Virus record (IMG/VR): IMGVR_UViG_3300029305_003178 | Span: 32,001 to 96,000 of that record | Direction: 5' to 3' (one strand) | Length of the DNA stretch: 64,000 nt | Source of the DNA: a virus | Lineage: Duplodnaviria; Caudoviricetes | Part shown: piece after piece, positions 9,642 through 44,646 of the stretch | Layout of the letters: each line of letters begins with the position of its first letter | Position numbering within the stretch: the first letter of the stretch is position 1 | Made by a program: the position numbers and the translations under genes | Notes under the pieces: generated by a model | What the model saw: only the letters and a program-made list of their open reading frames with translations | Told to the model about the DNA's origin: nothing | Database searches by the model: none

Positions 9642-9679
9642 GCGTCTCTACCTATATTTATTTGAAAGGGGATTTGATT

Positions 9680-10060
9680 ATGGAATTTACAAACAATGCT
9701 ATCGAAATGATGAAAAACTGTTATACCAATGAACTCATATTTATTAAAAATGTGATAAATGGTGAATTTATCGATGAGGGTGATTTTGGTGACCCAAAGA
9801 AATGTGACATTCTGGTTATTTTAGGAGATATGACAGTAGTACCTATCGATACAACCAAAAGAGGTTACTACCCTATGCGAAAATTAAGAGTCAGATATGA
9901 TAATTCTGGAAATTCTATGGGTTATCGAGAACGCTATCAAATCTCTGATGTATTTATAAACCTTACAGGGGATATTGCTAACGATATTGAGGAGTATAAC
10001 AAAAATCATATTTCCATATATGGTGATTCAGAAAAAATCATTGCATATATCGAAGCATGA
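9680..10060 (+). CDS. hypothetical protein
   Basis: ATG after AAAGGGG. Confidence 0.7.
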   Translation: MEFTNNAIEMMKNCYTNELIFIKNVINGEFIDEGDFGDPKKCDILVILGDMTVVPIDTTKRGYYPMRKLRVRYDNSGNSMGYRERYQISDVFINLTGDIANDIEEYNKNHISIYGDSEKIIAYIEA

Positions 10061-21931: not shown

Positions 21932-23281
21932 TTAAGCTTTAACAACATCTTCGAATACAACGATAAATTTACCATAGCCAACGCTAGGAATGTATACATA
22001 GTATTCATAAGAACCAGAAGCAGCTTTTTCCAGTGGTGCACCTGTATAGTTTCTAGCTTTACCAATTACATTATCAATTGTACCCAGTTTTTCCAGGGGT
22101 ACCAGACCGTAACTGATTTTACCATTTTCTACAGTTTTTGTATAACACACTGTATCTCTCATAATCTGTTCTTCACCTGCAAACAGTTCGAATGCGATGT
22201 AGGACTGACCATGTTCTCTTCTATGTGTAATGACATCAACATCACCTTCAACGGATTTGGAGATTTCATTTGCATAGCCATTTATTGTACCCAGAGCATA
22301 AACTTCACCAGCTCTCAGTACCTTACCATATTTAATACCTGCTTTGATCAGGAAATCATAACCATTTACAGTTACTTTGATATCACCATCAACTTCAGCA
22401 CTTGTAAAGATTACAGGAACTGCAACGAACAGTGTACCATCTTCTACTTTAAATGCAGGTGCAACAATAAAGCTATTATTACCAACACTCAGTCTAATTG
22501 TCTGATCTTTTGTGAATGTTAATTCACCGACTGTGATTTCATCAGCATCACTAATACCAGAAGCTACTTCTGTATAGAAAGATTCAGAAGCTTCTAATGT
22601 CTTGTTGCTACCAGATTTATTATAGTATGTGTCTTTCAGTTCAACTGTTTTAGCTGCTGTTTTTTCAGCAACTACTGCAGAGCGTTCAACTTCTGGAACA
22701 AAACCATCTACAGAGAATACTTCTCTATCGGATGTATTAAACATAATCAAACTATTTACTTTTTTCATTACTCTAGCAACGAATGTATATTCGCCGGGAT
22801 CGTTGACTGTTTCAACAGCTTCAACCAGTTCACCATTCCACATTACACAAACAGGTTTGGATGTGGATCTAAATGTTACCATTGTAGCATCTACAACTTT
22901 AATATCGGAAATAATCATATCTTCAGCAGTATCTACAGCCAGATCAACAATTTTGTCCATAGGTACTACATGAATGTCAGATGCATATACATCAGAACAG
23001 TCAACTACGATAGCTGTAGGAGTTACTTTTTTAGCAAAGATAGATTCTGTGCTGTGTTCACAATCGTTAGCAGTATTAATAACTTTTTCTGTTGTTTTAA
23101 TTACTTTAACGATACCATCGATAGTAACTTCTTTACCTTCAGCATTAACATATACTAAGTTTTTAATCAGCTGACCTTCTTTAAGTTCAACCATTTTATA
23201 GGAACCGTTTTCATAGTTAAGTTTAACTTCAACTAAAATTTTAGAAATCGGTGTAACAGATTTCAATTTTAAATTAGCCAT
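21932..23281 (-). CDS. putative virion structural protein
   Basis: 449-aa beta-rich ORF, AAAGGAGG RBS, late promoter at 23320..23331. Confidence 0.7.
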   Translation of the reverse strand: MANLKLKSVTPISKILVEVKLNYENGSYKMVELKEGQLIKNLVYVNAEGKEVTIDGIVKVIKTTEKVINTANDCEHSTESIFAKKVTPTAIVVDCSDVYASDIHVVPMDKIVDLAVDTAEDMIISDIKVVDATMVTFRSTSKPVCVMWNGELVEAVETVNDPGEYTFVARVMKKVNSLIMFNTSDREVFSVDGFVPEVERSAVVAEKTAAKTVELKDTYYNKSGSNKTLEASESFYTEVASGISDADEITVGELTFTKDQTIRLSVGNNSFIVAPAFKVEDGTLFVAVPVIFTSAEVDGDIKVTVNGYDFLIKAGIKYGKVLRAGEVYALGTINGYANEISKSVEGDVDVITHRREHGQSYIAFELFAGEEQIMRDTVCYTKTVENGKISYGLVPLEKLGTIDNVIGKARNYTGAPLEKAASGSYEYYVYIPSVGYGKFIVVFEDVVKA

Positions 23282-23352: not shown

Positions 23353-23395
23353 TCCGTATTTATTAGATTTTTAAATATATATTATTATTGTGAAT
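23353..23395 (+). promoter_or_regulatory. extended early promoter TCCGTATTT-N16-TATATTAT-N5-TGAAT
   Basis: Same element at 8716, 9217 and 61993. Core TATATTAT also at 2044, 8168, 24465, 27161, 32986, 36314, 43833, 44671, 49667, 52060, 53432, 57758, 59258. Confidence 0.75.
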
Positions 23396-23731
23396 GAAAG
23401 ATGTATAATGCATTTTATCATTCAAATGTAACTAATTATCATTATTTATTAAAAGTTTTAAAATTAAAATGACACACCAAATGATTAATTGTACTATGCT
23501 AGCGGGCAATTGATCACCAAGGATTATTATTGTATCGTGCACATATAATAATATCCAGGCAATCTGGTCTCCCTATGGAGGTATATTCAAAAATCCCAGA
23601 ATATATGAACGGTGTGGTGCATTATACGTATGCATTCTAAAACCAGGGGACTAAGTAAAAGCAAGATCAGCTTTTAAGAGACAACCTAAATATGACTTCT
23701 CAATTTCGATGGGTGGTTGTCTTTTTTTTTT
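23390..23731 (+). ncRNA. candidate early structured ncRNA
   Basis: Full early promoter upstream, multiple stems, GC richer than flanks, no ORF longer than about 21 aa noted, terminator at the end. Confidence 0.55.
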
Positions 23732-23795: not shown

Positions 23796-24446
23796 ATGAA
23801 ATATAGTTCTCATAGCACTTATTATAATAAAGAAGGTATAGAAGTTCCTAGTGTAACTACTATACTTAAAATATTAAATAAACCAGCATTAACCACATGG
23901 GCTAATAATCTAGGCTGGAATAGAAAAAGCGTTAAAAAAGTATTAGAAGAAGTTTCTGATATTGGAACAGCTGTACATGAAATTATTAACTGTATATTAG
24001 CTAAAAAGAAATTAGAATATAGTAAATCACATATTCCATTTGATGTATTGTATCCGTATGTAATGAACTTTATGAAGTTCTATAATGATCATACATTCGA
24101 ACCAATTATATTAGAAGAATCTCTTAGTGTAGATAATTTTGGTGGCACAATAGACTATTATGGTAAATTAGATGGAAAATATACAATTATAGATTTTAAG
24201 ACATCTAAACAGATAAGAATGTCGATGTTTTTACAACTTGCTGCATATTGCATTATGTTGGAAAAGTATGGTCATACTGTAGAGCAAGTGGGTATATTAC
24301 TAGTAAATAATAAAAATGGCGGATTTAGATGTATATCTAGAGAAGAATTAGATCCATATATAGAAGTATTTAATGCTTTAGTAACTTTATTTCATTTGTA
24401 TTATAATCTTAACGAAAATGAAAATTGGCATGAAATGATTATTTAA
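23796..24446 (+). CDS. PD-(D/E)XK (Cas4-like) exonuclease
   Basis: PSVTTIL, GTAVHE, GTID, IIDFKTS, QLAAY. Confidence 0.85.
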   Translation: MKYSSHSTYYNKEGIEVPSVTTILKILNKPALTTWANNLGWNRKSVKKVLEEVSDIGTAVHEIINCILAKKKLEYSKSHIPFDVLYPYVMNFMKFYNDHTFEPIILEESLSVDNFGGTIDYYGKLDGKYTIIDFKTSKQIRMSMFLQLAAYCIMLEKYGHTVEQVGILLVNNKNGGFRCISREELDPYIEVFNALVTLFHLYYNLNENENWHEMII

Positions 24447-25692: not shown

Positions 25693-27007
25693 ATGATGTT
25701 TAAAACAAACTCTAAAAATAATTATATTAAAGAGCATGATAAAATTCCATTGAAATTCGATATTTCAATGTTAAATATGTTTATAGGCTACTTATTTAAA
25801 AAGGCTCCTGGTATTACTAGAAAGTCTTTAAATAATATGAAAAAGCTTATAGATATTATAGATGAGACAATTTATGACGGTAATGATCAAATGAGTGAAA
25901 GATTAGAGTTTATTAAGAATGCATTAGATGCAAAACTCAATCAAGGATTTGAAAATGATGAAATGATCATCAACTATTGTCGTAGCGATATAGACAATAA
26001 AGAAAATAAAGAAATTATTGAAAATATTCCGTTATATACAAAGATAAATTATGATGAGATAACATATATCAATAAAGCAGTAGAAGATAGATTAAAATTC
26101 TTCTATTTATATTATTATAAAGATAGAATTTATAATGTTATGGAAAAATTAGATAGTGGTAATTATAAATCTTTCTTTGAAATTAATAATGAAGCAATTG
26201 ATGTATGTACTCAATTAGTTAATGCTGCAAGAAAAGTCAAATCAGTTGATGAAACGGATACATTTTCATTATCTGATGAAAATTTTGAAGATAATATTAT
26301 TGACATTGCAGAGAAATTAAAAAATCCATCAAGCATATTACAAACTGGTATACAGAAATTAAATCAAATGTTTGCACCTGGACTAATGTCTGGTAGACTC
26401 TATATGTTTCTTGGTCTCCCTGGTGGATATAAATCTGGTATACTTCTTAAAATAGCAAGAGATATTAGAAAATATAATAAAAATATTATAGGTAAAAAAC
26501 TCGGTAAACGACCATGTGTATTACTTATAACAATGGAAAATTCACTTCAAGAAACAGTAGAACGATTATTTAATATGACTATAACATCCACTAATATTAG
26601 AGATTATACTCCTAATGAAGTGGTTGATCTTATTAAAAAATCCGGAGAGTTTGAACTAACAGATGAGAACGATATAGATATAATTATTAAATATTATGCG
26701 AATAGAACTATTGATACATCTGATTTATACACCATAATAGAGGATTTATCAGATGATGGTAAAGAGGTTATAGCATTAGTATTAGACTATATCAAAAGGA
26801 TTCGTTCTTCGGAAAAATCAAAAGATGAAAAAGAAGAATTAAAAAATGTCACTAATGAATTAAAATCTATTGCTCAATATTATGATATACCTGTGATAAG
26901 TGCTTCACAGTTAAATAGATCCGGTGCATCTACAGTAGATGCGGCGTTACAGTCTAATAAAGAGGATCTCGGCAGACTATTGGGTAGATCTAATGTTGGT
27001 TCAGCCT
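25693..27007 (+). CDS. dnaB: DnaB-like replicative helicase, exon 1
   Basis: Walker A GLPGGYKS, ITMEN, VLDYI, SQLNR; exon ends at TCA GCC T. Confidence 0.85.
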
Positions 27008-27982
27008 TAAAGATTTATAGGGCTGATTAAATCTTTTTAATTGCTGGAAACTCCTTAGAGCTTAAGATACCAAAGAGTAACAATTCTTAAGATTGGACAA
27101 TCAGCAGCCAAGCTTTTGTAAAATATTGTATTAAAAAAGTATTTATTATTTATTCATTTATATATTATTTATAGGAAGGAGTTGATATTTATGAATTGCA
27201 CAATTGATATAGGTAATGAGTTATGGACTAATTTAGTATATAAAGATATTAAACCAATGTATGAAATTAGTACATATGGAAATATTAGAAATAGAAATAC
27301 TAAAAAAGTTCTTAAAAAATCAGTTAGTGAAAAAGGTTATATTCAAATTGGGTTAATGGTATATAGTAAGAAGAAAAGTAATAAGACATTTAAATTGCAT
27401 GTACTTGTTGCTCATACATTTTTATCAAAACCGCCCAATTTCTACTCAGAATACTATACTGTTAACCATAAGAATGGTAATAAGAATGATAATTCTATTT
27501 ATAATTTAGAATGGATAACATTTACTGAAAATATACAGCATTCATATAAACTCGGTCTTAATAAGCCAAGAAAAGGTTCTTTGAATGGTAGAAACAAGTA
27601 TGATGAAAAAATAATAGAATATGTATGTGAACTTATGTCTAAGAACTATAAAAATAAATATATTATAAACTGTGTGCTTGATAAATTCTCAATACAAATA
27701 TCAAAGCATGTCATTCATGATATACGACGTAAAAAGACCTGGACACATATTAGTAATAAATATTTTACAAAAGAAGGTTCAACGACTATCGAAAATTCTA
27801 ATAAAGATGAGTATCGTTATGATATTATAATCGAATTTAGAGATTAGTAGAGTACATCCAAGTGGATGGAAACGGAAGACATCTTATAATTATAAGATGA
27901 AGATATAGTCTGGTCTTTATGGAAACATAAAGAAGTTCATAAGAGAACTGCATAGAATTAACGACTCTATGTGAACATATCG
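27008..27982 (+). mobile_element. group I intron in the dnaB-like gene
   Basis: P1: exon TCAGCCT pairs with GGGCTGA (U.G at the splice site); AATTGCTGGAAA, AATCAGCAG, TTCAACGACTA and AAGATATAGTCT core elements; terminal G; splicing restores GSAWEIIENSDW. Confidence 0.9.
27191..27847 (+). CDS. intron-encoded HNH homing endonuclease (NUMOD4-HNH type)
   Basis: YEISTYGNIR, HVLVAHTF, VNHKNGNKNDNSIYNLEW; own TATATTAT at 27161. Confidence 0.9.
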   Translation: MNCTIDIGNELWTNLVYKDIKPMYEISTYGNIRNRNTKKVLKKSVSEKGYIQIGLMVYSKKKSNKTFKLHVLVAHTFLSKPPNFYSEYYTVNHKNGNKNDNSIYNLEWITFTENIQHSYKLGLNKPRKGSLNGRNKYDEKIIEYVCELMSKNYKNKYIINCVLDKFSIQISKHVIHDIRRKKTWTHISNKYFTKEGSTTIENSNKDEYRYDIIIEFRD

Positions 27983-28308
27983 GGGAAATAATAGAAAATA
28001 GTGACTGGTGCTGTATTATTAATATTGAAAGAAAGAAAGATACTGGTCAGTATTATCTTACTTTCAAGAGAGTAAAAATTCGTTATGGTGATCCAACAAA
28101 TTTAGATTACATAAATCATCCTTTTAATATGGACAATAGAATGCAGTTAATTGATGATATAGAATTAGCCCGTTCTTTATCTGAGGACAGTTTAGCATCT
28201 AATTTTGAAGGTATTGAATTATTGAATAAAAAAGGTAAAAGACATGCAGTTGAAAGAGAGACTGTAGATGATGAAGGATTATTTGATTTTTCAAAATCTA
28301 TAACTTAA
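27983..28308 (+). CDS. dnaB: DnaB-like helicase, exon 2 (missing from the ORF track)
   Basis: (W)EIIENSDWCCIINIER...YLTFKRVKIRY...FDFSKSIT*; spliced protein is 546 aa. Confidence 0.85.
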
Positions 28309-29956: not shown

Positions 29957-32218
29957 ATGGGACTAACTCTAACTAAGCAACAACGAGAAGGTTTGATATT
30001 GGCTAAATTATGGTGGCCTAATAGATATAAAAGACAAGTATTTGAAATTTCTGGTGCTGCTGGTACAGGTAAAGCGCAACCAATAACTACTAAAATTCCA
30101 ACACCGAATGGTGTTATTGAATTAGGTAAATTAAAAGTTGGTGATTATGTATTTAATAGACATGGTAAACCTGTAAAAGTATTAGGTGTATTCGATCAAG
30201 GTGAATTAGATGCATATAAAATAACATTCGATGATGGACGAAGTACGATATGCAATGATGAGCACTTATGGTCTGTATATGATTCACATAAACCTAATAA
30301 AAAAATAAAAACTCTAACTGTCAGAGATATGTTAAATAAAGGATTATTTAAAAACGATGGTACTCATAGATATCGTGTGCATATGAGTAAAGCAGTTGAA
30401 TATGATGAAAAAGAATTACCAATTGATCCATATGTCATTGGAGCATTTATAGGAAATGGTTGCTGTACTGAAAACATATTATCATTTTCATCTAATGATA
30501 TAGAAGTAGTTGATAGTATAAGTAAATTAATTGGTGCTAAAGGTTATTATAAATTACCATCAAATAATTATACGTATGTATTTTTATTGAATGATAATGA
30601 GAGAGGTCACAAGAATCGTAAATATTACCAAACAGAATCATTTTTTAGGGATGTCCCAGAATTAATAGGATATTCATATACAAAACGAATACCTAAAGAT
30701 TATTTATATTCTAGTATTGAACAGCGTTGGGCGTTGGTTCAAGGATTGTTTGATACAGATGGTTCGATATCATGTAATTCCAGATTCAATATTTCATATT
30801 CTAGCATTAATTTAGGATTGATATTAGATATTCGCGAATTATTATTTAGTTTGGGCTATGCGTCAACTATTAGTATAGATAAACGAAAAGATAAGTATAA
30901 AAAAACTGGTGCATGTTATACATTATATGTTAAAGCGGATAATCAAATTAAACCAAAATTTTTTAGATTAACTAGAAAGCACAAATTTGCAGAAATTGCT
31001 AAAGATATTAAAAAACGACATGATTATAGTTTAACTTATATTCATAACATTGAAAAATTAGATTATAAGACAAAAATGCGCTGTATATATGTAGATGACC
31101 AAGAACATCTTTATTTAACAAATGATTATATAGTAACTCATAATACAACCTTGATATATCATTTAATTGATGAATTAGGATTATCTGAACGAGATGTATT
31201 ATTCGTAGCATATATTGGTAAAGCAGCATTACAGATTACACTAAAAGGTAATTCAGCGCAGACAATACATTCTGCAATATATAATAGAATTGAAGTACCA
31301 TTAATGGAAGGTGATAAACCTGTTCTTAGTAATGGTAGACATGTTACTAGATTTGAATTTGTTAAAAAGGAAACATTAGATTATCCATATAAATTGATAG
31401 TAGTTGATGAAGCCGCAATGGTTCCAGTCAATATTGCCGAAGATTTAAAATCATTCGGTGTACCAATCATTGCATTAGGCGATAAAAATCAGTTACCACC
31501 AATATTTGGTAAATCTTATTTTCTAAATAAACCAGATATCCATTTATCTGAGGTAATGAGACAATCTGCAGATTCACCAATAATTAAATTAGGGCAATTT
31601 GCAATGCATGGTAAACCTATAAAAACTGGAGATTATGGTGATTCTAAAGTAATATATAGAAGTCAATTAACTGATGAAATGTTATTAGATGCAGATGTTA
31701 TATTATGTGGTAAAAATAATACTAGGCAAAATATAAATAATCATGTAAGAAACGATATATTAAAACGGACAAAAGATTATCCATGTATAGGAGATAAATT
31801 GCTCTGTAAGCAAAATAATTGGCAGAAATTTGTTTGTGATAATATTTATCTTGTTAATGGTATGCTGGGATATTGTACAGATGTATACTTGGACTCATTT
31901 AATGGAAAATCTTTAGATATAGATTTTATGCCAGAATTTTTATCTGATGAATATTTTAAAAAACTAAAAATAGATTATAATCATCTATTAAATCCACAAG
32001 GACTATTGACAGCAAATAAAAGAAGTTTTTATAATAAATTTGAGTATGGGTATGCAATAACAGTGCATGCCGCTCAAGGCTCGCAATATAATAATATACT
32101 AATATTTGACGAAGTTCTTGGTGCAGAAAGTTTTCATAGAAAATGGTTATATACTGCAATAACGAGAGCTAGTGAAAAATTAACGCTGGTTGTACCAGAC
32201 GAACTTAATTGGTGGTGA
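29957..32218 (+). CDS. Dda/RecD-like SF1 helicase containing an intein
   Basis: GAAGTGK|intein|TT, VVDEAAMV, GDKNQLPP, YAITVHAAQGSQY, YTAITRA. Confidence 0.9.
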   Translation: MGLTLTKQQREGLILAKLWWPNRYKRQVFEISGAAGTGKAQPITTKIPTPNGVIELGKLKVGDYVFNRHGKPVKVLGVFDQGELDAYKITFDDGRSTICNDEHLWSVYDSHKPNKKIKTLTVRDMLNKGLFKNDGTHRYRVHMSKAVEYDEKELPIDPYVIGAFIGNGCCTENILSFSSNDIEVVDSISKLIGAKGYYKLPSNNYTYVFLLNDNERGHKNRKYYQTESFFRDVPELIGYSYTKRIPKDYLYSSIEQRWALVQGLFDTDGSISCNSRFNISYSSINLGLILDIRELLFSLGYASTISIDKRKDKYKKTGACYTLYVKADNQIKPKFFRLTRKHKFAEIAKDIKKRHDYSLTYIHNIEKLDYKTKMRCIYVDDQEHLYLTNDYIVTHNTTLIYHLIDELGLSERDVLFVAYIGKAALQITLKGNSAQTIHSAIYNRIEVPLMEGDKPVLSNGRHVTRFEFVKKETLDYPYKLIVVDEAAMVPVNIAEDLKSFGVPIIALGDKNQLPPIFGKSYFLNKPDIHLSEVMRQSADSPIIKLGQFAMHGKPIKTGDYGDSKVIYRSQLTDEMLLDADVILCGKNNTRQNINNHVRNDILKRTKDYPCIGDKLLCKQNNWQKFVCDNIYLVNGMLGYCTDVYLDSFNGKSLDIDFMPEFLSDEYFKKLKIDYNHLLNPQGLLTANKRSFYNKFEYGYAITVHAAQGSQYNNILIFDEVLGAESFHRKWLYTAITRASEKLTLVVPDELNWW
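30074..31144 (+). mobile_element. intein (357 aa) with LAGLIDADG endonuclease, Ala1/WCT class 3-type
   Basis: AQP start within Walker A; ICNDEHLW; GAFIGNG and GLFDTDG; MRCIYVD; IVTHN|T. Confidence 0.9.
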
Positions 32219-33613: not shown

Positions 33614-33755
33614 ATAGTAAACTTATAATACACATTATTTAAAAACAATGAATTTCGCTCAAAGTTTTTAAAGACTACCTTTATAAAAGTTCTCCCCTTA
33701 AGTTAAATGTGTCAGAATAGTTCTCCAAGAACATAAAGTATTATAAGTTTATTAT
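33614..33755 (+). ncRNA. candidate structured RNA or structured 3' UTR
   Basis: 18-bp closing stem (one G.U pair), internal hairpins, followed by a terminator at 33759..33810. Confidence 0.4.
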
Positions 33756-44456: not shown

Positions 44457-44646
44457 ATTGGTTAAATGAATAAGAACATCATCTTTTTACATATAGTAGT
44501 TACATTTCAATAACCTTACAGTAAATCATAGTAAGTTATCTCCATAAATAATACATTGCCTTGATAAAACATAAGCCTAACAAACAGCAATGGTTATTGA
44601 AATTTTGTACACCTCCTTTCTTTCACATATGATGTTCTTATTCATT
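44457..44646 (+). ncRNA. candidate late sRNA (6S-like rod with anti-SD bulge)
   Basis: AACA-N6-TA at 44446..44457; 18-bp perfect and 12-bp perfect nested stems; CACCTCCTTTCT in the bubble. Confidence 0.55.

Follow-up and report, generated by a model that had tools for sequence, protein, structure and literature searches.

Positions 23392-23731 of the window, by which we mean the whole 64,000-nucleotide stretch analysed here (positions 32,001 to 96,000 of IMG/VR virus record IMGVR_UViG_3300029305_003178), probably form a genuine gene for a non-coding RNA in an AR9/PBS1-like jumbo phage, the transcription of which we infer from its sequence. The product of this small gene is most likely RNA rather than protein, and it is probably a small RNA of early infection, not described before, whose defining feature is a single invariant loop; the hairpin that carries this loop (23581-23606) is likely the working part of the molecule. 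An earlier sequence-only reading had proposed an undescribed early non-coding RNA in a transcription unit of its own, and this is supported by an AR9-type promoter and by pairing that four alleles conserve around one and the same loop. The importance which that reading gave to a multibranched architecture is not, since the relatives have simple strings of hairpins, 170-292 nt long, instead. Comparison of the alleles reduces the part of interest from 340 nt to a 10-nt loop, so that its function is open to direct test.

The transcription unit and its surroundings

The source record of the window is the 227-kb genome of an AR9/PBS1-like jumbo phage from the gut. The DnaB-like helicase of this phage is nearest to those of the Bacillus jumbo phages BpSp, AR9 and PBS1 (~35% identity), and Bacillota are the hosts of its closest cultured relatives. 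The RNA unit sits in a 514-bp gap between a leftward gene for a 449-aa protein and a rightward PD-(D/E)XK nuclease gene (Table 1), 3' of which lie the genes for an SbcD-like phosphoesterase and then the helicase. All of the sequence elements listed in the sequence-only reading are present where it had placed them.

The early promoter consensus of AR9 is AAATATATATTAT-(6N)-G (PMC5312081), and positions 23373-23392 match it exactly, which makes G23392 the predicted +1. The unit is in this respect like the early units of Bacillus phage AR9 itself, with an identical promoter consensus and a +1 G, and a word search of the AR9 paper (PMC5312081) gave no mention of "noncoding" or "small RNA". With this match and 11 copies of CGTATT-N14-20-TATATTA in the 227-kb genome, the assignment of an early promoter is well founded, but the promoter is not unique, being one of five such promoters in the window. 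No strong sigma70 site was found at the start of the unit. At the other end, the proposed intrinsic terminator stands as far as its stem is concerned (23677-86/23715-24, mean pair probability 0.97), and this GACA/UGUC stem shows compensatory changes across alleles, but its 28-nt loop is unusually long and a consensus scan for terminators misses it.

Table 1. Predicted features of the RNA unit and its two neighbours (window coordinates)
Feature	Positions	Strand	Evidence
Neighbour, 449-aa protein, divergently oriented	21932..23281	-	no Pfam family
Early (virion RNA polymerase type) promoter	23353..23391	+	upstream CCGTATTT element; AT-rich core 23373-23385
Predicted non-coding RNA, 340 nt, +1 G to U tract	23392..23731	+	z -3.5; no Rfam match; equivalent units in L093, L179/L005, L190
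5' arm: local 5' hairpin or 5' strand of long-range stem with 23617-23637	23392..23423	+	fold predictions
AU-rich linker, largely unpaired	23424..23472	+	pair probabilities <0.2
Allele-specific helices: 23473-78 (with 23611-16), hairpins 23482-23516, 23521-23556, 23569-23580	23473..23580	+	predicted at 0.70-0.96
Conserved hairpin, 8-bp stem, invariant 10-nt loop W-AAAAUCCC-W at 23589-23598	23581..23606	+	sole 8-mer common to 4 alleles
3' strand of long-range closing stem; alternative local hairpin 23617-23635	23617..23637	+	0.93 vs 0.06; allele-specific
Unpaired G-run, can pair with 23565-72 (-12.0 kcal/mol) or conserved loop (-6.4)	23646..23653	+	window allele only
Hairpin with A-run/U-run base directly 5' of terminator	23656..23676	+	equivalent in 4/4 alleles
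Intrinsic-terminator-like stem GACA.../...UGUC, long loop with GGGUG at 23711-15, then U10	23677..23731	+	stem 0.97; GGGUG 4/4
Neighbour outside RNA, PD-(D/E)XK / Cas4-like nuclease, 216 aa	23796..24446	+	Pfam PF01930, PF12705

Other versions of this slot were recovered by way of the neighbouring proteins. Three related phages, with proteins 73-89% identical, have an RNA unit in the equivalent slot (L093, L179 with its near twin L005/L006, and L190), and L094 and L095 are identical to the window. The four alleles fall into two lineages only, the window with L190 and L093 with L179, and they are not four fully independent tests.

The unit might instead be the 5' leader of 23796-24446, or encode a 21-codon peptide: the nuclease gene is its immediate neighbour downstream and has the same orientation, and the long-looped terminator may leak. 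In L190, however, the nuclease gene has been cleanly lost and its upstream region joined to the sbcD promoter (L190:395-497), and the promoter, motif hairpin and terminator are all retained. This argues that the unit is not a leader but, as had been proposed, a transcription unit of its own, and judging from the clean loss the nuclease appears dispensable. The 21-codon open reading frame (23575-23640) is present as first reported, but it is without a ribosome-binding site and without a counterpart in the other alleles. Both the leader and the peptide readings are very improbable on these grounds.

Among more distant relatives (50-58% nuclease identity), the slot contains tRNA genes in four cases (Pro, Leu-UAA and Gln genes upstream of the nuclease gene in L007, L010, L014 and L096), and in the remainder an unrelated structured RNA, protein genes or little else; none of them has the motif hairpin. 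The structured RNA (L008:3600-3930, in a relative with 56% identity) is a different, strongly folded non-coding stretch (z -5.0) with no Rfam match and no copy among 20 related records. Closer to the window, the first 33 nt of the L005 unit (L005:1-33) differ from those of L179 although the nuclease genes of the two are identical at 595/600 positions. These 33 nt contain a Shine-Dalgarno (SD)-like tract that would mask the anti-SD tract of L005 itself, and the start of L005, which is at a contig end, may be chimeric.

An invariant loop on unrelated stems

The 180 nt to the left of the RNA unit are 96-99% identical among the alleles and the 70 nt 3' of the terminator 71-91%. The units of the three relatives can no longer be aligned with the window allele, and the RNA bodies (138-288 nt before the terminator) give alignments at or barely above shuffle level. 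Since the four-fold degenerate sites of the downstream genes are only 46-61% identical between alleles, ordinary drift is enough to explain the unalignable bodies, and hypervariability through an arms race is an unneeded explanation where synonymous sites are near saturation. Every allele has the early promoter and an A-run/U-run hairpin before the GACA/UGUC terminator, a stem begins at +1 in 3/3 alleles with a mapped start, and each of the four bodies gives a more stable fold than expected by chance (z -2.9 to -3.6).

AAAAUCCC is the only 8-mer common to 4/4 alleles. It stands in each of them in a loop, W-AAAAUCCC-W, that is exactly 10 nt long and closed by at least 5 pairs. The stems under the loop are unrelated in sequence, with 20/20 stem cells paired across the alleles, and each of the five stem positions shows two or three types of pair; these pairs were counted by script rather than with a covariance model, because a MAFFT alignment put the four hairpins out of register. 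The loop itself has an unpaired probability of 0.95-0.99 where this was computed. That the loop is kept and its stem compensated while degenerate sites have diverged so far indicates purifying selection on the loop.

The motif was proposed from three alleles, and L190, which was recovered afterwards, fits it; 12 of 50,000 shuffles of L190 (~2 in 10,000) place the motif in a 10-nt loop on a 5-bp stem. An 8-mer with at least two G/C was common to four shuffled bodies in 0 of 20,000 trials. As controls, a stem of at least 5 bp was present at 0 of the 30 sites inspected among 43 at which the 10-mer occurs in 20 records of related jumbo phages, and at 0/138 among the matches listed by a promoter-plus-motif scan of other virus contigs.

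A second shared element is confined to three alleles. CCUUUC, a mostly unpaired tract in L093, L179 and L190 and their only other common 6-mer that contains G/C, is complementary to the GAAAGG ribosome-binding sites of the phage; the window allele is without it. Both L093 and L179 are rich in C and poor in G (CC 7 vs GG 1 and CC 14 vs GG 6, respectively), and further C-rich loops occur in all three of the other alleles.

The 340-nt RNA of the window folds better than 100/100 shuffles (z -3.5; z -3.2 for the core without the terminator). Six of the helices proposed in the sequence-only reading, terminator included, are supported at 0.70-0.97: mean pair probabilities are 0.70 for 23473-78/23611-16, 0.96 for 23482-92/23506-16, 0.93 for the 23521-23556 hairpin (as 23525-35/23543-53), 0.95 for the CUCC/GGAG hairpin and 0.86 for 23581-88/23599-606. 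Its outer helix 23449-57/23669-77 is not predicted to form (0.00), the 3' arm being taken up by the local hairpin 23656-76 (0.93), and a local UGCAU/AUGCA hairpin reaches only 0.06. The dominant long-range stem, which that reading had not listed, closes the fold through 18 interrupted base pairs of 23392-96 and 23401-13 with 23617-29 and 23633-37 (0.93). A local 5' hairpin, which in the window allele resembles that of L190, is predicted to lie 2.4 kcal/mol above this stem, to compete with it and to form first during transcription. Of the suggested pseudoknot it holds that 8 bp could form (duplex -12.0 kcal/mol), but they would compete with the CUCC/GGAG hairpin and are absent from the other alleles. 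The helices of 23473-23580 also have no counterpart there, and because neither the multibranched domain nor the possible pseudoknot occurs outside the window allele, they cannot be the conserved function.

Possible functions of the loop

The reading that we favour, if only tentatively, is by analogy an early small RNA that would use its UCCC loop to block the ribosome-binding sites of one or a few mRNAs. The virion RNA polymerase would start at G23392, as the exact match to the AR9 consensus suggests, and make a transcript that its 5'-terminal stem and its 3' terminator would stabilise. Any stable stem should then present the 10-nt loop W-AAAAUCCC-W unpaired, its conservation being observed and its folding predicted. 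The UCCC of the loop would act as a seed on ribosome-binding sites that are rich in G and have U residues after them (GGGAUUUU-like), most likely in host mRNAs, and block the initiation of translation as LhrC, RsaE and SprX do. If so, the extra C-rich single strands of the other alleles may be second contact sites, and the remaining scaffold, needing only to fold, would be free to change.

Several lines of evidence favour such a seed. The loop is invariant on stems that have been replaced, the later allele L190 fits, and UCCC is unpaired and conserved in 4/4 alleles. On sequence evidence the unit has its own promoter and intrinsic terminator and no conserved open reading frame. An unpaired loop UCCC is a documented seed of small RNAs of low-GC Gram-positive bacteria that bind Shine-Dalgarno regions (PMC4132741), and SprX is a phage-borne small RNA with a UCCC-containing loop (PMC4005690). 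The CCUUUC tract, the C-richness of L093 and L179 and the Bacillota hosts of the closest cultured relatives point the same way.

The search for a target weakens this model. No phage gene has a perfect complement of the loop at its start, and a host search through DUF3841 gave no result. The preference of the loop for start regions over coding regions is matched by that of a reversed control, and the mean energy at starts is -4.4 kcal/mol for the loop vs -9.4 kcal/mol for the true anti-SD. The best match among 234 phage starts, at a 127-aa early gene (window 9650-9680, -9.8 to -10.3 kcal/mol), is indistinguishable from chance, and even a perfect 10-bp duplex of the loop would yield only about -11 kcal/mol. 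That the window allele is without CCUUUC weakens the model further, as do the fixed loop length and four invariant A residues, which would fit a protein ligand equally well.

If the loop were instead a protein-binding site, the RNA would either titrate a host RNA-binding or defence protein as a decoy or serve as the ligand of a phage protein. A fixed loop on stems of any sequence is the pattern of protein-read hairpins, and an exactly 10-nt loop with an invariant core and non-pairing end bases (A/A or U/U) is in keeping with it, as are the early timing and the failure to find an RNA target among phage starts. AAAAUCCC also recurs as the anticodon loop and 3' stem strand of the phage's tRNA-Leu(UAA), and tRNA genes fill the slot in the four more distant relatives. 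Mimicry of a tRNA anticodon arm (5-bp stem, 7-nt loop) is nevertheless rejected, being contradicted by the 10-nt loop, by the AAAAA rather than UAAAA of the window and L190 and by a negative ARAGORN result. The loop has no candidate protein, and no match to the CRISPR repeats or type III antitoxins of Rfam was found; GGGGACUAA, which we take to resemble a Cas13 repeat, is confined to the window allele. We regard a protein site as rather unlikely, and a base-pairing seed as somewhat better supported than a decoy. The specific proposal that the loop captures a host protein of defence or RNA sensing within minutes of infection, as a 10-nt-loop decoy on an exchangeable scaffold and of a kind not yet described, is unlikely.

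Two further readings were weighed. In one, the loop would kiss that of the terminator (CCC-W with W-GGG) and so shape the RNA or adjust how much transcription runs on into the replication genes. The unusually long terminator loop contains GGGUG in 4/4 alleles, and the base before GGGUG complements the last base of the conserved loop, as A-U in the window and L190 and as U-A in L093 and L179; this covariation, however, is a single event that separates the two lineages. With no more than 4 bp, the contact would be worth about -5 kcal/mol; in the window, GGGU is in part engaged in local pairs (0.55), and the invariant AAAAU is left unexplained. In L190 there is no gene left to regulate, and sbcD is served by an early promoter of its own. 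Such an interaction is distinctly unlikely. The other reading does away with a working RNA altogether, leaving a promoter/terminator cassette like PeSL with decayed cargo, or a hairpin that acts as DNA at a nick or primase site. The promoter is of a repeated class, the body is unalignable between alleles and hairpins at +1 are fairly common among the early mRNAs of the phage. HUH nick sites, too, are marked by a conserved loop whose stem varies. Decay, though, cannot account for an 8-mer and a compensated stem preserved in four alleles, all four bodies of which fold better than chance, and the motif lies always on the transcribed strand between +1 and terminator, once per genome as a hairpin. 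A search for Y1 HUH transposases, the only family covered, found none encoded, and we consider a cassette of either sort improbable.

If the favoured base-pairing seed is correct, an early small RNA transcribed by the polymerase of a jumbo phage would bring the C-rich-loop mechanism into host takeover. C-rich-loop small RNAs have been described from the chromosomes and temperate phages of Bacillota, and to our knowledge little has been learnt of the small RNAs with which lytic phages act on their hosts. The RNA would also represent a type of family that alignment-based searches miss because everything except the loop has been rewritten. The lineage is small, with four alleles, and the phage is uncultured.

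Known systems and other elements of the genome

The unpaired UCCC in a hairpin loop is shared with LhrC, RsaE, RNAIII, SprD and FsrA (PMC4132741). C-rich-loop small RNAs of Bacillota such as LhrC also have extra C/U-rich single strands, as three of the alleles do, and a layout of 5' hairpin, linker and terminator, as in the short alleles. Unlike them, the RNA comes from a lytic-type jumbo phage under its own RNA polymerase, it has no sequence relation to them and the 10-nt loop alone is conserved; the likeness is at the level of sequence features. SprX, from converting phages of Staphylococcus aureus, is likewise phage-borne with a UCCC-containing loop, but it is conserved in sequence, belongs to temperate phages and has a proven target, spoVG (PMC4005690), whereas the scaffold of the window RNA is unalignable between relatives. 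The PeSL cassettes of T4-type phages (PMC2839356) likewise enclose a variable stretch between a repeated early promoter and a stem-loop terminator, and the promoter here is repeated too (11 copies). In PeSL, however, a sigma70-like promoter and a terminator flank swapped ORF modules (PMC2839356), whereas the RNA unit has an AR9 virion-polymerase promoter, is non-coding and contains a selected loop. GOLLD, ROOL and other large, ornate phage RNAs resemble it as structured RNAs of gut phages, in a slot that holds tRNA genes in relatives, but the RNA here is much shorter, its fold is not conserved and it has no Rfam score.

That the sequence-only reading did not recognise the RNA as a tRNA, tmRNA, RNase P, T-box or ribozyme agrees with the database searches. 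Against Rfam 15 (covering tRNA, tmRNA, RNase P, SRP, 6S, T-box, ribozymes, GOLLD, ROOL, CRISPR repeats and type III antitoxins), no family matched at the gathering threshold or, meaningfully, at E up to 10, the best hit having E 0.56 and 19.6 bits vs a cut-off of 61; the other alleles were likewise without a match, and neither a tRNA nor a tmRNA was detected in the unit. By blastn against 50,697 phage records there was no DNA similarity to the unit, and the body had no second copy in its own genome (promoter matches only) and none in 24 related virus records (AT-rich noise only). Exact-pattern scans of IMG/VR and GTDB gave chance matches or none, searches of the locus with single proteins gave no close relatives and a metagenome scan gave distant ones only. 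A literature search found nothing relevant on the motif or on similar small RNAs of lytic phages. Resemblances to RNase P ends, group I intron R/S elements, the 3' end of a Cas13 repeat, the loop of 23S helix 58 and the T-box GGGUGG were dropped, as the alleles do not share them.

The phage genome contains other non-coding elements. Outside the window, G000:C1:129996-130143 is another unit with an early promoter, about 150 nt long and built on the same plan of +1 hairpin, longer hairpin, A-run/U-run hairpin and terminator, without the AAAAUCCC loop; from its sequence it is a candidate paralogous small RNA. Long non-coding arrays of alternating 9-nt repeats, TIGR-like in appearance, lie at about 107700-108800, 113300-114500 and 200500-201100 of G000:C1. 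In the window, 33614-33755 and 44465-44646 are non-coding and, in predicted folds, closed by 18-bp stems with unpaired pyrimidine tracts that resemble an anti-SD. The helicase gene at 25693-28308 is interrupted by an HNH/NUMOD4 endonuclease open reading frame (27182-27847) followed by group I intron-like sequence, and the relative L010 has group I introns in the corresponding helicase region.
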